Sequence record: SRR31156797_3873
Length of the DNA: 63,626 nt
Strand: one strand, 5' to 3'
In this document: positions 11,616 through 63,394 of the stretch, piece after piece
How positions within the stretch are numbered: the first letter of the stretch is position 1
How the letters are laid out: each line of letters begins with the position of its first letter
The notes under the pieces: model-generated
Databases searched by the model: none
What the model was told of the DNA's origin: nothing
Seen by the model: the letters and a program-made list of their open reading frames with translations, nothing else
Position numbers and translations under genes: made by a program

Positions 11616-11652
11616 CTGATTCTAACCAAAGTAGTAACTTGGTTAGAATCAG
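11616..11652 (+). terminator. Stem-loop at the end of the PUL
   Basis: Perfect 14-bp inverted repeat CTGATTCTAACCAA / TTGGTTAGAATCAG about 40 nt after the GH30 stop; U-tract is weak. Confidence 0.6.
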
Positions 11653-14954: not shown

Positions 14955-14985
14955 AAAAAAAGACCGCCAATTTACTGACGGTCTT
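14954..14985 (-). terminator. Intrinsic terminator after the small peptide gene
   Basis: AAGACCGCCA / TGACGGTCTT stem with an A-run at 14954-14961 (U-tract on the minus strand). Confidence 0.75.
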
Positions 14986-15218: not shown

Positions 15219-18200
15219 CTAATTAATTACTACTTTTTTTGTGCTAAGTTGATTGTCCTGAATCACTTTAATTATATACACTCCTGTTTGTTGAATTTGT
15301 ATTTCATTAAGTGTTCCGGAATTCAGTTTTCCTTGTTTGATCAGTTTTCCTTCAGTATTCAGAATACTAAAATTGGCATCCTCAGAACCGAATGTTTTAA
15401 TAAATATATTCTTCTTAATGGCATAAATTTCAGCCAACTTAGTTGCTGGTTTTACGTCTGTGTTTGTTGTAAATCCATTAATGAATTCAATATCAAATCG
15501 GGTTGTTGAATTAGTTTTCTCCGATGTAAATTCATAAAACTTATCGATCGTAAGATCTACTGTAGTATTAGGTATATTATTATCAGTTAGTAAAACTTGA
15601 ACGTTTTCATCAATACCTTGAATATCTTCTAGCGCAATTTGAAAAGTACCGGCTTTTGATGTTTTGTAGCACAGTGGAATAATCATATTTGAGACTAAAT
15701 CCGGATAAGTGTTAATGGTTAAATTATAGCCATCAACAATAGAATATAATTCTATCAAATCACTATTGTTACCAAATTTCTTTTTCGAATCATAAGCTTC
15801 GTAAGATTCAGCTGCTTCAGGGCTAAAAGCAATTACTTTTTCATCCTTTGTACCGTTGTGTATTCCAGCTAGTCGAATATGCGGGATCACTTCTTCAGTG
15901 CTCGCAGACTTTAAGTAAGAAGTATGATTATGCGCTAAGTGCGATTTCCTAACCGTAAGGTTACCTGATACGGTTTGACCAGATTCCCAGGTTGCCTGAA
16001 TCCAGAAACCATGGTTGCTTGGAATAAGGGATTCATCACCTTCAAGGTTAGTTCCAACGCCAGTAGTTCCATTATAAGTTCCATATTGACTGGTGGTTAA
16101 CCAGATCCAGAATTCGTTATCTATACCAACTCTGTCGCTAGCATCGATTAAGTCCCAGTCAATTGCAGCTGGGAAAGGATTTCCTGCTAATGTAAATCCG
16201 GAATTTTTAGGCGTTCCGTTTGCTGTAATACTGTAACTGCTATTATTGTTAATCGCTCCGGAAAATAATAAGTCGTTGGTGCTTGATAAAATGTAACCTT
16301 CTAATGGTGTCCAATCAGTATCCGAACCATATGCATCCCAACTTCCTGTAATATTATTCCAGCTATAAATATTTCCGTCAGAACCAATGCTTGTTAAGGT
16401 AGCACTTTGAACAGGAGAACTTATGAAATTGTATATGCTTGGATTTGAGATGTTCTGTTCTATTTTGATGTTAGAATTATTTACCGTTAACGAACCATCA
16501 ACTATAAGGGAACCATTTCCTGTTGCATCACTCTTAAGAGTTAAACCTTCGGTTATCGTAAGCAAAACACTGGAATTAATTGTAACACTTCCTAAAGGTT
16601 CGATTACCATATTTGGTAAGGAAGTATTGGAGCCAATAATTACTTCCGGAGTTCCGGCAGGGATAATAGCACTAGCCCCCGGAACATAACCGGCTTCCCA
16701 GTTAGCCGCATTAGTGAAATCGTTATCTCCAGCGTCACCAGTCCATGTATTAAAAGCAGCCGTAGTAAAATCAATAGAAGAGGCGCTGGATTGTTCATTT
16801 CCAAGAATATCTTCAACTTGATTAATTGTTAGTGTATAAGTTGTTTCAGAAGATAACATATCACTAGGTGTGATGGTTATGGCATCTGCACCTGCATTAA
16901 TGGTTGCTGTAAAAGTTACCGCAGGACTAAATGAAACAATGGTTTGTAAATCCAATTCCGAAATTTGTGATCCATCGAGGTTTCTGACTGCTTCATCGAA
17001 ACTTACTTCCAACGGAGCACCTACAGAAACATCAGTTTGTCCATCAGTTGGTGAATCAAATGATGTTATTGGGGCAGAAACATCAGCTATTGTAAAACTC
17101 CATTGCGTGTAATTCTGCAAACTGTTGTAATATTGACCATCTACCTGAATAATATTGCTATTAGGAACATAAACGGCATATTCATTTTCTGCCAGCAAAG
17201 TTTCTCCGGATAAGTCAATGGATAAAACATTTCCGCTTGTGTAAACTTCTGCAGAATTTGTGTTTAAAATTAATTCATTGGATGAAGTGGTTATGTTATA
17301 GATTACAATGTTTTCTAAATCAGCCAAAGAAACAGCAGTGTAAGCATCAAATGTTGCTGTTAAAAAAGGAGATGAAGAAACATCAACGGCATCATCTAAA
17401 GGTGAAAATGTAGGATCAGATACAGGATCAATAGTTGTAAAACTCCATGTAGTATAATTCTGTAATCCATTATAATACTGACCATCCACTTGAATAACAT
17501 CATTGCCAGGTATGTATACTGCGTATTCATTACCTTCAATTAATGTTTCACCAGAAAGATCAATTGTAATAACATTTCCACTAGTGGATACTTGTGCTGT
17601 ATTTGTAGATAAAATGATTTCATTTGCGGAAGTGGTTACATTTCTTATTACCATATTTTCTAAGTCGCTTAAAGTCAAAGTGGAATAACCTTCGAAAGTA
17701 GCAGTTAAAGTAGGCGAAGTACCAACGTCTGCTGCATTATCTAACGGAGAAAATGTTGGATCCGGTAGTGGGGTGACGGTTGTAAAACTCCATTTAGTAT
17801 AGTTCTGTAATTCATTATAGTATTGTCCGTCAACATTAATCACATCTGCGTTGGGAACATAAATTGCATATTCATTTCCTTCTAACAACGTTTCACCAGA
17901 AAGATCAATTGTTAGTACATTACCCGAAGTAGAAATCTCAGATCCACTTGTGCTAAGTATTATTTCATTACTTGAGGTCGTGATGTTTCTAACAACAATA
18001 GATTTGAAAGCAGTTAAAGAAACAGAGGAGTAGGCATCAAATGTAGCAGTTAAAGTAGGTGATAGACCAACACCTGTTGCATCATCTAACGGAGAAAAAG
18101 TGGGGTCAGTCAAAACACTCGTAGTTGTAAAGCTCCACTTGGTATAATTTTGTAATTCATTATAGTATTGCCCATCAACATTTACTACATCGCTACTTGG

Positions 18201-19892
18201 TATATAAATAGCATATTCATTATTACCGAGAAGCGTTTCTCCTGAAAGGTCAATAGTAAGTACGTTGCCAGAAGTGGATACTTCAGAACCACTGGTGCTA
18301 AGGATGATTTCATTAGATGCAGTTGTTACATTATATACCACAATAGACTTAAAGGCAGCAACAGAGACTGAAGAATAGCCATCAAAAGTAGCCGTTAATA
18401 TAGGGGAAGGTAAAATACCTGTTGCATCATCTAACGGAGAGAATGTTGGATCAGTAAGAGGTTCAACAACTGTAAAACTCCATTTAGTGTAATTTTGTAA
18501 TTCATTATAGTAATTTCCATCATAGCTAATCACATCATTATTCGGAATATAAACAGCATATTCATTTCCTCCAGTCAAGGTTTCTCCCGAAAGGTCAATC
18601 GTAAGGACATTGCCGGAAGTTGAAATTTCAGAGCCACTTGTACTAAGTATTATCTCATTTGAAGCTGTAGTTACATTATAGATTACGACAGCATTAAAAG
18701 CAGCCACAGAAACAGAAGAATATCCATCAAAAGTAGCTGTAAGTACTGGAGACTGTGAAACACCCGTAGCATCATCTAAAGGAGAAAAAGTTGGATCGGT
18801 TGCTGCAGTTGTAAAACTCCATTTAGTATAGTTTTGCAATTCATTATAATATTGCCCATCTACATCGATTACGTCATTATTTGGGATGTAAATAGCATAC
18901 TCATTACTTCCCAGTAAAGTTTGTCCAGACAGGTCAATGGTTAGAACATTACCTGAAGCAGAAACTTCCGACCCACTGGTGCTTAATATTATTTCATTGG
19001 ATGCGGTTGTTACATTGTAAATAACAACACTTTCAAAATCAGTTAATGTGACATTTGAGTAGCCATCAAACGTAGCGGTTAGAATAGGAGATACAGAAAC
19101 TTCGGTAGCGTCATCCAGTGGTGAAAATGTTGGGTCGGAGACCCCAGCCGAGGTAGTAAAACTCCATTTGGTGTAATTTTGTAATTCATTATAATATTGC
19201 CCATCCACATTAATTACATCATTATTTGGAACATAAACAGCATATTCATCTCCTCCCGATAAGGTTTCTCCAGTAAGGTCTATGGTAAGTACATTGCCTG
19301 CAGTTGATACTTGAGAACCACTTGTGCTTAAAATATATTCATTTGTAGACGTTGTAACATTTCTTATTACAATGCTCTCGAATTCAGTTAAAGAAACTGA
19401 AGAATAAGCATCAAACGTAGCTGTTAATGTTGGCGAAATTGAAACATCAGTCGCATTATCTAATGGCGAAAATGTAGGATCAGAAAGTGGTTCAACTGCT
19501 GTAAAGCTCCATTTGGTATAGTTTTGTAGTTCGTTGTAGGAAGTTCCATCTACATCAATAACATCGAGGTTGGGAACATAGACAGCGTATTCATGCCCTT
19601 CATTTAATGTTTCTCCAGATAAATCAATGGTTAAAACATTTCCACTAGTGTATACTTGAGCGGTATTGGTAGTTAAAATAATATCGAAACTTGATGTTGT
19701 AATATTCCTGATAGCTATATTTTGAAAATCTGTAAGAGTAACAGCTGAATAACCATCAAATGTAGCTGTCAAAACAGGAGAAAGGGAAACACCAGTAGCA
19801 TCATCTAATGGAGAAAAAGTAGGATCTGTTACTTGTGCAAAAGAAATAGAGCTTATAAGCAATGTCGCTAATAATGAAAATAAAGTTTTCAT
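15219..19892 (-). CDS. T9SS type-A-sorted surface protein/adhesin with tandem SbsA-like Ig domains
   Basis: Signal peptide; 8 repeats of about 115 aa ('DPTFSPLDDAT...YNELQNYTKWSFT') plus a ninth divergent Ig domain; 'TWTG...NW' and 'AGNPFPAAIDW' modules; CTD 'ILNTEGKLI...GVYIIKV...TKKVVIN'. Confidence 0.88.
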   Translation of the reverse strand: MKTLFSLLATLLISSISFAQVTDPTFSPLDDATGVSLSPVLTATFDGYSAVTLTDFQNIAIRNITTSSFDIILTTNTAQVYTSGNVLTIDLSGETLNEGHEYAVYVPNLDVIDVDGTSYNELQNYTKWSFTAVEPLSDPTFSPLDNATDVSISPTLTATFDAYSSVSLTEFESIVIRNVTTSTNEYILSTSGSQVSTAGNVLTIDLTGETLSGGDEYAVYVPNNDVINVDGQYYNELQNYTKWSFTTSAGVSDPTFSPLDDATEVSVSPILTATFDGYSNVTLTDFESVVIYNVTTASNEIILSTSGSEVSASGNVLTIDLSGQTLLGSNEYAIYIPNNDVIDVDGQYYNELQNYTKWSFTTAATDPTFSPLDDATGVSQSPVLTATFDGYSSVSVAAFNAVVIYNVTTASNEIILSTSGSEISTSGNVLTIDLSGETLTGGNEYAVYIPNNDVISYDGNYYNELQNYTKWSFTVVEPLTDPTFSPLDDATGILPSPILTATFDGYSSVSVAAFKSIVVYNVTTASNEIILSTSGSEVSTSGNVLTIDLSGETLLGNNEYAIYIPSSDVVNVDGQYYNELQNYTKWSFTTTSVLTDPTFSPLDDATGVGLSPTLTATFDAYSSVSLTAFKSIVVRNITTSSNEIILSTSGSEISTSGNVLTIDLSGETLLEGNEYAIYVPNADVINVDGQYYNELQNYTKWSFTTVTPLPDPTFSPLDNAADVGTSPTLTATFEGYSTLTLSDLENMVIRNVTTSANEIILSTNTAQVSTSGNVITIDLSGETLIEGNEYAVYIPGNDVIQVDGQYYNGLQNYTTWSFTTIDPVSDPTFSPLDDAVDVSSSPFLTATFDAYTAVSLADLENIVIYNITTSSNELILNTNSAEVYTSGNVLSIDLSGETLLAENEYAVYVPNSNIIQVDGQYYNSLQNYTQWSFTIADVSAPITSFDSPTDGQTDVSVGAPLEVSFDEAVRNLDGSQISELDLQTIVSFSPAVTFTATINAGADAITITPSDMLSSETTYTLTINQVEDILGNEQSSASSIDFTTAAFNTWTGDAGDNDFTNAANWEAGYVPGASAIIPAGTPEVIIGSNTSLPNMVIEPLGSVTINSSVLLTITEGLTLKSDATGNGSLIVDGSLTVNNSNIKIEQNISNPSIYNFISSPVQSATLTSIGSDGNIYSWNNITGSWDAYGSDTDWTPLEGYILSSTNDLLFSGAINNNSSYSITANGTPKNSGFTLAGNPFPAAIDWDLIDASDRVGIDNEFWIWLTTSQYGTYNGTTGVGTNLEGDESLIPSNHGFWIQATWESGQTVSGNLTVRKSHLAHNHTSYLKSASTEEVIPHIRLAGIHNGTKDEKVIAFSPEAAESYEAYDSKKKFGNNSDLIELYSIVDGYNLTINTYPDLVSNMIIPLCYKTSKAGTFQIALEDIQGIDENVQVLLTDNNIPNTTVDLTIDKFYEFTSEKTNSTTRFDIEFINGFTTNTDVKPATKLAEIYAIKKNIFIKTFGSEDANFSILNTEGKLIKQGKLNSGTLNEIQIQQTGVYIIKVIQDNQLSTKKVVIN
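17085..19830 (-). repeat. Intragenic tandem repeat, 8 x ~345 bp
   Basis: Units encoding DPTFSPLD recur every 345 bp (one interval is 339 bp). Confidence 0.9.
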
Positions 19893-20058: not shown

Positions 20059-20775
20059 TTACACAACAGTAAGTTTGGCTAAATAATCATAATGATCCCC
20101 CTCTGCTACCTTCTCCATTTTTAAACCGTTTTTTTCGGCGTAAAAACCGAGTAATTCATCATCAATAAACAACCATTTAAATGATTTGCCTTTTATGTCC
20201 CCGTAATCCATTTTGTACGAGATTTCACCGTAGTAGGTTTCGTTAAGATTTATTAAAATACTGCCGTCATCCTCTTCAAATAAATACCTTATGTCGGAGC
20301 TGTCTACAATTAATGAACCTCCTGGTGATAATAGTGATTTTACCTTATTGAAAAAACGATTCAGATTAGCTGTTTCTTCAGCTAAACCAATACCATTCAT
20401 CAACATTAAAATGGTATCGTACTTATTTTCTTCGGGTAAATTATAGAAGTCTTCGTTAATAATGTTTTTTACTCCTCGCTGATGCATAATACTACAAGCT
20501 TCGTTGCTTATTTCATTTGCAACTACTTCCTTATTGGATTGCTGTAAGTACAAAGCATGACTGCCAACTCCGGCTCCCACATCCAAAATTTTACCTTTGC
20601 ATATGGTTAGGGCTTTCTTTTCAAGGTCGGGCATTTCGTTGAACGATCTAAACAGGTATTCCACCGGCAACACGTCGTCTTCAACAATATTTGATTTTAC
20701 TATAATTTGAGCCTTTTTATTGCCATTTAAAAAATCGCGGCAAGCTGCTCCAAGGGCGTCTGTCGTTTTATTCAA
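20059..20775 (-). CDS. Class I SAM-dependent methyltransferase
   Basis: 'ILDVGAGVGSH', 'YDTILMLMNGIG', 'DSSDI', 'YYGE'. Start moved to TTG 20775 because a TATTTTTG -7 element lies at 20793-20800 (minus), inside the longer ORF. Confidence 0.85.
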   Translation of the reverse strand: MNKTTDALGAACRDFLNGNKKAQIIVKSNIVEDDVLPVEYLFRSFNEMPDLEKKALTICKGKILDVGAGVGSHALYLQQSNKEVVANEISNEACSIMHQRGVKNIINEDFYNLPEENKYDTILMLMNGIGLAEETANLNRFFNKVKSLLSPGGSLIVDSSDIRYLFEEDDGSILINLNETYYGEISYKMDYGDIKGKSFKWLFIDDELLGFYAEKNGLKMEKVAEGDHYDYLAKLTVV

Positions 20776-20841
20776 TGTTATATGTTTTGATGCAAAAATA
20801 CTAAAATACCGCTTCATATAATGTTGTATCGTAATATTTTG

Positions 20842-20922
20842 TACATTTGTGTTCATAAAATCCGTCATTGGGAAATAGACTTAAATTTTTAAAAGCAGTT
20901 TGGCGGATCTGCTTTTTTTGTT
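20842..20922 (+). promoter_or_regulatory. Promoter -7 element followed by an attenuator-like structured 5' leader of dus
   Basis: TACATTTG at 20842-20849; hairpin GTCATT-GGGA-AATAGAC (20864-20880); terminator AAAAGCAG/CTGCTTTT plus U-tract (20891-20919); ATCCGTCA (20860-20867) complementary to TGGCGGAT (20901-20908). Confidence 0.6.
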
Positions 20923-21834
20923 TTGGATACTTCAGTTTATTTTGCTCCGCTGCAGAGCTACACTACGATACCATATTTTTTAGCATTTAATCAGATTGTT
21001 GGAGGAATCGATAAGTATTTTACGCCTTTCTATCGAGTAGAAAAGAATGGGTTATTCAATTTAGAGAATGAGCTTCGCCATTATGATGATATATGTATCA
21101 TTCCTCAGGTGTTATGTAATTCCGGAAGAGAACTCATTCAGTTTGCCCAACAATGTGCCGATAGAGGTTTTGAGGAAATCAATCTGAATATGGGTTGTCC
21201 GTTTCCAATGGTAGTTAATAAAAAGTTAGGGTCTGGAATATTACCATTCCCGGATATGGTTAAGGCAATGTTGGAAACATATTGTATGCAGAATTCAACC
21301 ATAAAACTCTCTGTTAAGTTAAGGTTAGGTTTGCAAAGTACTCTGGAGATGGAATCAATTATTAAGCTCCTAAAAACTTATCCATTGAAAGAAATAATTA
21401 TGCATCCTCGCCTTGGGGTTCAGAAATATAAGGGTAGTCCTGATTGGAATATTTATGAGGAATTAATATATCATTATCCGATGGTAGCCAATGGAGATAT
21501 GCTGAGTTTATATGATATTCAAAGTTTAAAAAACAGATTTCCTGGATTACATACTTTTATGATCGGAAGAGGACTATTAATGAATCCTTGCTTGTTGCAG
21601 CCTGAATTGGATTGGTATCAAACTATAAACCAATTGCATGATGCATTTTTTAGTAATCTGCAGAATATGGGTTTAAGTGAGCATCAGCTATTAAACCAAT
21701 TAAAATGTTTCTGGGAATATCCTTCGCTTAGAGTAGAAAATGGTAAACGAATCTTACGTAAAATGAAAAAGGCAGGGAAGTTAGATGAGTTATTTCAGCT
21801 TAAGAGTCAATTGTTGAATCAGGATTTAGCTTAA
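20923..21834 (+). CDS. tRNA-dihydrouridine synthase (Dus) family protein
   Basis: 'FAPLQSYT', 'PQVL', 'INLNMGCPFPMV...GSGIL', 'SVKLRLG', 'HPR', 'ANGD', 'MIGRGLL'; TTG start. Confidence 0.9.
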   Translation: MDTSVYFAPLQSYTTIPYFLAFNQIVGGIDKYFTPFYRVEKNGLFNLENELRHYDDICIIPQVLCNSGRELIQFAQQCADRGFEEINLNMGCPFPMVVNKKLGSGILPFPDMVKAMLETYCMQNSTIKLSVKLRLGLQSTLEMESIIKLLKTYPLKEIIMHPRLGVQKYKGSPDWNIYEELIYHYPMVANGDMLSLYDIQSLKNRFPGLHTFMIGRGLLMNPCLLQPELDWYQTINQLHDAFFSNLQNMGLSEHQLLNQLKCFWEYPSLRVENGKRILRKMKKAGKLDELFQLKSQLLNQDLA

Positions 21835-21838
21835 ACTA

Positions 21839-22747
21839 TTACAAAGAAAAACCAGTATCAACATAATTATCGTAGGATTGGCAAACGGCCGAAGAGAATC
21901 GAATACCGCAATTGATCAGGTAGTCCCATTGGGATTCATTAAGTGTTTCCAAATTCTTTTTTAGGTAGTTTTGTTGCAGTAAACCATGAATAATTCCGGC
22001 ATTAAAATTATCGCCTGCGCCAATGGTACTCACAGTTTTAATTTGTGGTACAGCATAATGTTTTTTTACGAGAGGTGTTTGAACAAAAACTCCATGCGCA
22101 TTGGCTGTATAAACCAAATTTTGGCATTGATCTTGGACGTTCAGGTAAGCATTTTCGGAATTGGAGGCTTTATGAATATTCTCAAAATCCTCGTTACTTC
22201 CACGGACAATATCAGCCAGTTTAAAATTCTCCCGCATAAAGCTTAAGTACATGTCTTTGTTTTGATCATGTACCTTTCTGAAGTTGGGATCATATAAAAC
22301 AATACAACCACTTTGGGCAGCATGTTCTGCAAATTTGAGTACTTGCGATCTAATTTCAGGAGCAATAGTGTAGGTAGAACCAAACAGGAATATATCCCCT
22401 TCTTGGAAATCAGGAAGAGTTTGGTTTAATCTGTCTTCCGGGTAGTTTTTATAGAAGTTATATTCAGCGTCGTTTTGTTCGTTTAAAAAGGCCAAAGCTA
22501 TGGCGCTCTGGCCTTTTGTATATTGCTGAATATACTGCGTATTTAGTTTATTCTCTTTTAAAAAGCTAAGAATTGTTTTACCAGCTAAATCATCTCCTAA
22601 CTCACTAATCATATAACATTCATGCCCCATTCTGGCCAAAGAAATCAATGCATTTAAAACGGATCCGCCTGCTTTGGCTGATGCAGGTTGGCCATCTTTA
22701 AAAATGATATCATATACAATTTCTCCTATTCCAAAAACGCGACGCAT
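21839..22747 (-). CDS. PfkB family carbohydrate kinase (fructokinase-like)
   Basis: 'GIGE', 'AGGSVLN', 'YDPNFR', 'STIGAGDNFNAG'. Confidence 0.92.
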   Translation of the reverse strand: MRRVFGIGEIVYDIIFKDGQPASAKAGGSVLNALISLARMGHECYMISELGDDLAGKTILSFLKENKLNTQYIQQYTKGQSAIALAFLNEQNDAEYNFYKNYPEDRLNQTLPDFQEGDIFLFGSTYTIAPEIRSQVLKFAEHAAQSGCIVLYDPNFRKVHDQNKDMYLSFMRENFKLADIVRGSNEDFENIHKASNSENAYLNVQDQCQNLVYTANAHGVFVQTPLVKKHYAVPQIKTVSTIGAGDNFNAGIIHGLLQQNYLKKNLETLNESQWDYLINCGIRFSSAVCQSYDNYVDTGFSL

Positions 22748-59849: not shown

Positions 59850-59885
59850 AAAAAAAGAGCCACTTTAAGTGGCTCTTTTTATTTA
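59850..59885. terminator. Bidirectional terminator
   Basis: AAAAAGAGCCAC / GTGGCTCTTTTT between convergent genes. Confidence 0.85.
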
Positions 59886-63358: not shown

Positions 63359-63394
63359 AAAAAAAAGCGGATGGTTGAATCATCCGCTTTTTTT
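63359..63394. terminator. Bidirectional terminator
   Basis: A-run-GCGGATG / CATCCGC-T-run between convergent genes. Confidence 0.85.

Follow-up and report, generated by a model that had tools for sequence, protein, structure and literature searches.

Small pseudoknot riboswitches such as those of the preQ1-I, SAM-II, and fluoride classes are short 5′ leaders in which long-range pairing of pseudoknot topology is combined with conserved unpaired bases and followed by an intrinsic terminator; preQ1 riboswitch classes also control genes of tRNA modification pathways. The thrS operator and the leaders of ribosomal protein genes are known for a narrow distribution, a constrained sequence, and a position ahead of a single gene for a protein that binds structured RNA. 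Here we describe a leader that appears to share traits with both, located upstream of a gene (dus) for a protein of the tRNA-dihydrouridine synthase (Dus) family in a stretch of 63,626 nucleotides (nt) from sequence record SRR31156797_3873. We refer to the whole of this stretch as the window; its source is a Saccharicrinis-like member of the Marinilabiliaceae (Bacteroidota). The leader is real, conserved, and uncatalogued and joins the familiar class of terminator-based 5′ leaders; what is unusual in it is its loop-clamping architecture and its target gene, dus. The leader probably throttles dus, and we lean slightly toward the view that it is a cis-acting attenuator gating transcription into this monocistronic gene.

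Conservation of the dus leader

The leader is intergenic, lying between a divergent methyltransferase gene (− strand) and dus (+ strand). For comparison, we used 80 dus loci (L001 to L080), inspecting the 180 nt upstream of the gene in the first 32. The same leader was found after a TAnnTTTG promoter box in the window and in 9 of the 80 loci (L001, L002, L003, L004, L006, L011, L012, L013, and L014), which belong to Saccharicrinis, Labilibacter, Plebeiibacterium, and metagenome-assembled genomes (MAGs) of the Marinilabiliaceae. The closest relative of the window's Dus-family protein is encoded on a Saccharicrinis MAG chromosome (L001, 92% identity), and the next relatives come from Labilibacter, Saccharicrinis, and Plebeiibacterium species (47 to 57% identity); at the element-bearing loci other than L001, the Dus proteins are 48 to 57% identical to that of the window. 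Read from 5′ to 3′, the first half of the arrangement consists of the TAnnTTTG box, 6 to 7 nt, AAAAT(C/T)CG, 3 to 5 variable nt, TTGGGAAATAG, and 11 to 12 A/U-rich nt, and the second half consists of AAAAGCAG, a 10- to 11-nt loop ending in (A/G)CG(G/A)AT, CTGCTTTT, a U-rich tail of 6 to 20 nt, and TTG. The corresponding features of the window, including the two strands of a long-range helix that we call P1, are as follows.

20842..20849, + strand: TACATTTG, Bacteroidota-type −7 box for dus, conserved in position in orthologs
20853..20859, + strand: predicted 5′ end of the transcript, placed by its spacing after the −7 box and including AAAA (20856-20859), which is invariant in the alignment
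20860..20867, + strand: P1 5′ strand, ATCCGTCA, pairing with 20901-20908
20868..20878, + strand: 11-nt box, TTGGGAAATAG, identical in 9 of 10 sequences, with 3 changes in L013
20879..20890, + strand: A/U-rich variable linker of 11 to 12 nt, differing in length and sequence among orthologs
20891..20898, + strand: terminator 5′ strand, AAAAGCAG, forming an 8-bp stem with 20909-20916
20899..20900, + strand: short U-rich linker from the hairpin 5′ strand to the P1 3′ strand, 2 nt here and 2 to 5 nt in orthologs
20901..20908, + strand: P1 3′ strand, TGGCGGAT, within the terminator loop, identified by covariation and RNAalifold
20909..20916, + strand: terminator 3′ strand, CTGCTTTT, stem partner of 20891-20898
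20913..20924, + strand: U-tract (T7, G, T4) running into the start codon, seen in the sequence, with U-rich tails in all 10 sequences
20923..21834, + strand: dus-family gene, 303 amino acids, TTG start, Pfam Dus match, monocistronic given the convergent gene downstream

Pairwise comparison of the leaders covered 36 pairs from 9 distinct sequences (L001 was dropped, since its leader is identical to that of the window). Mean pairwise identity was 0.86 in the leader core, 0.70 in the first 300 nt of dus, and 0.65 in the 60 nt upstream of the box. Because a noncoding stretch thus outdoes the gene that follows it in conservation, and does so across genera, the leader is, as judged from these alignments, under selection. 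In a tree of 41 Dus proteins (those of the window and L001 to L040, leaving out L041 to L080), all 10 proteins from element-bearing loci fell into one 15-row clade with support of 98/93. Within it, the copy in L013 (2917-2994) differs from that in its sister L014 by three changes in the box, one in P1 (a C-C mismatch), and two that break pairs in the terminator stem. The L013 copy is thus decaying, and the fact that P1, box, and stem have changed at once suggests that the parts of the leader work as a unit.

The Bacteroidota primary sigma factor consensus comprises a −7 TAnnTTTG element and a −33 TTTG element some 19 to 21 nt upstream. The TAnnTTTG box is found 6 to 7 nt 5′ of the conserved AAAAT(C/T)CG in all 10 element-bearing sequences, and upstream of it we found only a partial TTG, 15 nt away, in the window, L002, and L006. 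With 84 matches versus 92.2 expected, TAnnTTTG shows no enrichment in the window; since the motif count itself is at chance, it is the conserved position of the box in orthologs that makes it evidence. A scan of the window for sigma-70-type promoters returned 8 candidates where 12.3 were expected, none of them relevant to dus. Going by the spacing, transcription would begin a few bases after TACATTTG.

No known RNA family accounts for the leader. A cmscan search against Rfam 15 gave nothing above the gathering cutoff in the whole window. Between 20700 and 21000, there were only three chance-level matches (E values of 0.9 to 8.1; 14.5 to 19.8 bits against cutoffs of 49 to 141), and 10 orthologous loci yielded five weak matches, none of them at a leader. 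A covariance model built from the 10 element-bearing sequences and run over 576,878 bases (the window plus the 80 loci) found no second copy: it recovered only its own training sequences (80.9 to 94.1 bits), the next-best score being 18.9 bits (E = 0.33), and the orthologous site in L007 scored 16.1 bits (E = 2.2). Within these bases, then, the element occurs only ahead of dus. Two extra matches to a looser pattern, in L041 and L042, were not confirmed by the model and were discarded. In the titles and abstract openings that a literature search returned, we found no RNA leader or riboswitch described for a dus gene, and nothing related turned up on riboswitches in the Marinilabiliaceae. Three catalogues of candidate structured RNAs (PMC6429828, PMC2864571, and PMC5737381) mention neither “dihydrouridine” nor “dus” in their main text. 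The motifs of these catalogues should be included in Rfam.

Base pairing within the leader

P1 joins the 5′ segment of the leader to the loop of the terminator hairpin and, in the window, has 8 bp with one G-U pair. Of 2000 dinucleotide shuffles of the 71-nt leader, 9 gave a helix as good as this one (8 bp or more, with 4 or more G-C pairs and no more than 1 G-U pair). In the anchored alignment, 90.3% of P1 cells pair, and three of the eight pairs have changed on both sides: one position appears as C-G, U-A, and U-G, another as U-A, C-G, and U-G, and a third as A-U and C-G. Taken together, P1 and the terminator stem pair in 93.1% of cells, compared with no more than 50.7% when partners are slid out of register, and the covariation score was matched by 1 of 500 shuffles. 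RNAalifold, applied to sequences ending before the terminator 3′ strand, predicted P1 unaided with two compensatory pairs, and P1 was part of the minimum free energy (MFE) structure of all four truncated orthologs. In every one of the 10 sequences, the P1 3′ strand directly abuts the terminator 3′ strand, with 0 nt between them. Aside from P1, the leader consists, in the nine distinct sequences, of invariant sequence to which no structure can be assigned.

The terminator hairpin has 8 bp, including 3 G-C pairs, and a 10-nt loop and is followed by T7-G-T4 leading into the TTG at 20923. It thus has the shape of an intrinsic terminator, a stem-loop followed directly by a U-tract. Its energy is −8.4 kcal/mol (z = −2.46), which 2 of 200 shuffles equaled; the 71-nt leader as a whole shows no unusual stability (z = −0.44; 60 of 200 shuffles). 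Our automated terminator scan of the window allowed loops of at most 8 nt and therefore missed this hairpin. The stem is complementary across the sequences and nearly invariant, with six of its eight pairs never varying and one or two broken in L013 and L014. An earlier note on this DNA, made from its letters alone, had proposed a promoter-proximal structured leader ahead of dus with a consensus −7 box at 20842, an intrinsic terminator between promoter and start codon, and a 5′ segment complementary, with one G-U pair, to the terminator loop. It had also failed to recognize any known riboswitch class. All of these features are borne out by the comparisons given above: the leader recurs in 9 further loci, the box (20842-20849) keeps its position in all 10 sequences, the hairpin stands out from its shuffles and is followed by a U-rich tail in every copy, the complementary segments (20860-67/20901-08) covary, and no Rfam family matches the leader.

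The strongest terminator-like hairpins of the window (at 14960, 33152, 35772, 50582, 53391, 59853, and 63363) share the A-tract/stem/T-tract shape of the leader hairpin but are considerably stronger (−14 to −21.4 kcal/mol versus −7.9/−8.4 kcal/mol). The leader hairpin also differs from them in its 10-nt loop, in its placement between promoter and start codon instead of behind a gene, in a stem that is invariant across genera, and in a loop that pairs with the 5′ end of the same RNA. Three hairpins of the window (11616-11652, 59853-59879, and 63363-63391) are perfectly symmetric and score as terminators on both strands, with energies of −14.5 to −19.6 kcal/mol, and are likely bidirectional terminators.

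The tail between stem and start codon is U-rich and 6 to 20 nt long in all 10 copies. Since a tail of this length cannot hold a promoter, transcription from the conserved −7 box would have to pass through the hairpin to enter dus, and every dus transcript would be one that had read through a weak terminator. The same proximity bears on another explanation of the element, namely, that it is a stand-alone gene for a trans-acting small RNA in which the 11-nt box is the seed and read-through into dus is secondary. The leader does form a complete promoter-to-terminator unit of ~65 nt, and an invariant, apparently unpaired 11-nt box resembles a seed region. However, the unit is always joined to dus, 6 to 20 nt from the start codon and with no space for a separate dus promoter, and we consider an independent small RNA gene improbable.

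The window, L014, and the L003 group have G-U cells in P1 that would read as A-C if the opposite strand were transcribed; for this reason, we place the leader RNA on the + strand, as far as base pairing can indicate, and disfavor a minus-strand RNA. The same cells bear on whether the element acts as DNA, the 8-N10-8 inverted repeat being either an operator at the divergent promoters or a bidirectional terminator that shields the methyltransferase gene from read-through out of the minus-strand pfkB operon. An invariant inverted repeat without covariation is the pattern expected of an operator. The minus-strand hairpin itself folds with −7.5 kcal/mol (z = −3.83), and the stops of the convergent pfkB and dus genes are only 4 nt apart, the two genes overlapping in L002 and L009. 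P1, however, spans ~40 nt, and its G-U pairs exist on the + strand only. Moreover, the minus-strand tail consists of only four U residues and then A, whereas the U-rich tail of the + strand is kept in all 10 sequences. A DNA-level role is therefore very unlikely in our estimation.

The earlier note had also described, at 20864-20880, a hairpin with a GNRA tetraloop (GTCATT/GGGA/AAT(A)GAC). That hairpin can be drawn in the window, but it is not conserved as a stem and is no better than chance: its energy is −2.2 kcal/mol (z = −0.12), and 75 of 200 shuffles did as well. In an ungapped alignment anchored on TTGGGAAATAG, 68.8% of its cells pair, versus 65% in slid controls that had an equal or higher covariation score, and the pair at columns 6 and 15 was formed in only 2 of 8 distinct rows. 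We therefore rejected it as a conserved stem; what the alignment indicates to be conserved at this site is the 11-nt sequence. The box has no conserved pairing partner in the aligned leaders. An inner helix between the box and the U-run was also rejected, as its register varied between groups in single-sequence folds and RNAalifold did not predict it. The only conserved start-like codon in the leader is the TTG of the box. A leader peptide attenuator was rejected in turn, there being no common frame or stop among orthologs: the linker has 12 nt in the window, L001, L002, and L006 and 11 nt in the remaining six, a 1-nt difference that precludes a shared reading frame.

Possible modes of control

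In the mechanism that we envisage, the first ~65 nt of the transcript would fold so that P1 (20860-67/20901-08) ties the 5′ end to the loop of the 8-bp A/U-rich hairpin, and the U-tract after the hairpin would run into the TTG start. The earlier note had assumed competing folds, which is not supported. In a terminator/antiterminator attenuator, the alternative helix has nucleotides in common with the stem of the terminator; here, the P1 3′ strand lies wholly within the hairpin loop, the stem strands are 20891-98 and 20909-16, and P1 shares no nucleotide with the terminator stem. Any exclusion between the two helices would therefore be steric, and, for the same reason, P1 and the hairpin could coexist as a pseudoknot. 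With 2 to 5 nt in its 5′ linker and none in its 3′ linker, the loop would fit an H-type pseudoknot in which P1 is coaxially stacked on the hairpin, by the general geometry of pseudoknots, and the ~27-nt stretch that contains the box would be long enough to run along both helices. We give even chances to a model in which this fold strengthens an otherwise weak terminator (OFF) and its loss allows read-through (ON); an effector that stabilized or disrupted the pseudoknot would then set the level of read-through. The antiterminator of the earlier note, recast in steric terms so that P1 forms first, while the RNA is being made, and holds the loop rigid and the stem cannot close, appears to us somewhat less probable.

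Constrained folding at 37°C, with nested pairs only, gave −9.6 kcal/mol for the P1 state and −11.7 kcal/mol for the terminator state. This similar stability, together with the link between dihydrouridine and cold adaptation, invites the view, also put forward in the earlier note, that the balance between P1 and terminator is tipped by temperature or by a Csp-type chaperone in a thermosensor or cold shock antitermination switch. In the same nested-only energy model, however, the terminator state was ahead by 0.7 to 3.2 kcal/mol over the whole range of 4 to 45°C, without a crossover, and that part of the earlier proposal is not supported. In addition, P1 and the hairpin need not compete at all, strict sequence invariance is atypical of RNA thermometers, and no cold-related gene context was found. 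Control by such a switch is quite unlikely, and we think as little of temperature as the effector in general.

If the leader is an attenuator, an effector governing the frequency of termination would probably make contact with its two invariant elements, the box TTGGGAAATAG and the stem of the hairpin. Because the gene product is an RNA-binding enzyme, the gene context is single, and the sequence constraint is extreme, we incline to an RNA-binding protein over other effectors, with feedback by the Dus-family enzyme as the most natural candidate, although even this remains doubtful. Feedback by Dus would explain why only dus carries the element. A small molecule, which would make the leader a riboswitch, seems to us unlikely.

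An effector may also be superfluous. As a constitutive damper, a leaky terminator or a stabilizing 5′ structure, together with the TTG start, would simply keep dus expression low without any switching. The hairpin is weak in comparison with the strongest terminator-like hairpins of the window, all 10 sequences retain the TTG start, three clade members manage without the element, and the gene context yields no clue to a ligand, all of which fit such a damper. A generic terminator, however, would not be expected to retain an identical stem, an invariant 11-nt box, and a covarying helix where Dus itself is only ~50% identical, nor would its leader be expected to outdo the coding sequence in conservation. 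We therefore judge a fixed damper with no effector to be about as unlikely as a small-molecule switch.

Several observations weigh against a regulated attenuator. The transcription start site of dus, termination at the hairpin, and read-through are each predictions drawn from the DNA sequence. The terminator stem shows no covariation, its six invariant pairs leaving complementarity as what speaks for its pairing. The covariation of P1 comes from nine distinct but related sequences, and relatedness alone can beat shuffles in the absence of structure. Nested-only folding places either P1 or the hairpin in the MFE structure and never both. Nothing ties the Dus protein to the leader; the single gene context within the 576,878 bases searched offers no hint of a ligand; and there was no Rfam tRNA match at 20700-21000, and neither the window nor the 32 loci scanned contained tRNA genes with which to compare the leader, so that we set tRNA mimicry aside as speculation. 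Finally, leader control is dispensable, since three members of the clade (L008, L009, and L010) lack the element and two (L005 and L007) carry a diverged version without the 11-nt box.

The leaders of L005 (2914-3003) and L007 (2913-3003) align colinearly with the others and still have their promoter box, initial bases, and U-rich end; their hairpin is weak. They are natural “box-less” variants that should be useful for comparison. The start codon of dus is TTG in the 10 element-bearing sequences as well as in L005, L007, L008, and L010, and it is ATG in the leaderless Saccharicrinis aurantiacus locus (L009). Most simply, the element would be an invention of the clade ancestor that was then lost or had decayed in some lines.

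Returning to the attenuator, we tentatively hypothesize that it would define a new class of leader RNAs that sense an effector and would be the first RNA switch controlling a gene of the dihydrouridine synthase family, one in which the 5′ end clamps the terminator loop into a pseudoknot and the box reads out the Dus enzyme, its tRNA substrate pool (feedback), or a small molecule.

Gene neighborhood and comparison with known systems

The 303-amino-acid product of dus matches Pfam Dus with an E value of 1.8e-26 (93.5 bits against a cutoff of 20.4). Its alignments with DusB (6ei9) and TM0096 (1vhn) include the INLNMGCP segment, which aligns with IDINMGCP of DusB 6ei9. It falls far short of the NCBIfam equivalog cutoffs for DusB (77 versus 293 bits), DusA (52.1 versus 269 bits), and DusC (39.3 versus 395 bits); by these scores, the accurate label would be Dus family, with no DusA, DusB, or DusC subtype assigned. 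Its relatives are named “tRNA-dihydrouridine synthase family protein” in databases.

The divergent gene (20059..20775, − strand) encodes a class I S-adenosylmethionine-dependent methyltransferase of 238 amino acids with a TTG start at 20775, identified by Pfam methyltransferase domains and by a match to PDB 5bp9 (1.1e-65), which is an uncharacterized structure. Its −7 box, TATTTTTG, is of the TAnnTTTG type and lies at 20800..20793, with the TTG start 17 nt after it. The open reading frame (ORF) listed for this gene (20059..20868; 269 amino acids) reaches into the dus leader; because the orthologs are 238 amino acids long, this is an overextension, and the real start is the TTG at 20775. The divergent methyltransferase-dus pair was kept in all 10 clade loci tested. 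Outside the clade, the gene ahead of dus differs, being Amidohydro_2 in four loci tested and DeoR, ABC-F, adenylate kinase, LipB, or Ham1 elsewhere. Farther along the minus strand, 15219-19892 encodes a 1557-amino-acid protein with nine Big_5 immunoglobulin-like repeats and a C-terminal sorting domain of the type IX secretion system. Matches to TAnnTTTG recur every ~345 nt on both strands, especially at 18038-19764, which reflects near-identical tandem domain repeats in this protein.

On the 3′ side of dus lies a pfkB-type kinase gene in convergent orientation, with the two stops 4 nt apart (21834/21839); in L002 and L009, the genes overlap by 11 to 14 nt. No terminator lies between them in the window, so the dus and pfkB-type transcripts must overlap in antisense. 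A convergent gene follows dus in 11 of the 14 clade loci examined (L001 to L014). As exceptions, the next gene in L006 is on the same strand and L011 holds no downstream DNA; the downstream gene of L010, likewise in convergent orientation, is another and larger ORF. At 22486-22517 (+ strand), within the pfkB coding region of the opposite strand and ~650 nt beyond the dus stop, there is a strong A-tract/stem/T-tract hairpin (−16.0 kcal/mol) that might end the dus transcript, though its tail is not U-rich.

The regulation of bacterial dihydrouridine synthases is largely unexplored, and a compact leader with a testable architecture would offer a handle on how cells set their capacity for tRNA modification. 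The leader would also add an orphan regulatory RNA from a poorly studied family of marine Bacteroidota. If the pseudoknot reading is true, then a terminator would be tuned here via its loop rather than its stem, which is unusual.

Set beside the systems with which we began, the dus leader shows likenesses to each and departs from each. Unlike the small pseudoknot riboswitches, it gave no covariance model match at any threshold tried, the partner in its putative pseudoknot is the terminator's own loop, its target is an RNA-acting enzyme rather than a metabolite pathway or a transporter, and it is confined to one sub-clade of the Marinilabiliaceae. In contrast with the thrS operator and the ribosomal protein leaders, which mostly act on translation, it ends in a terminator, and its binding by Dus is putative.

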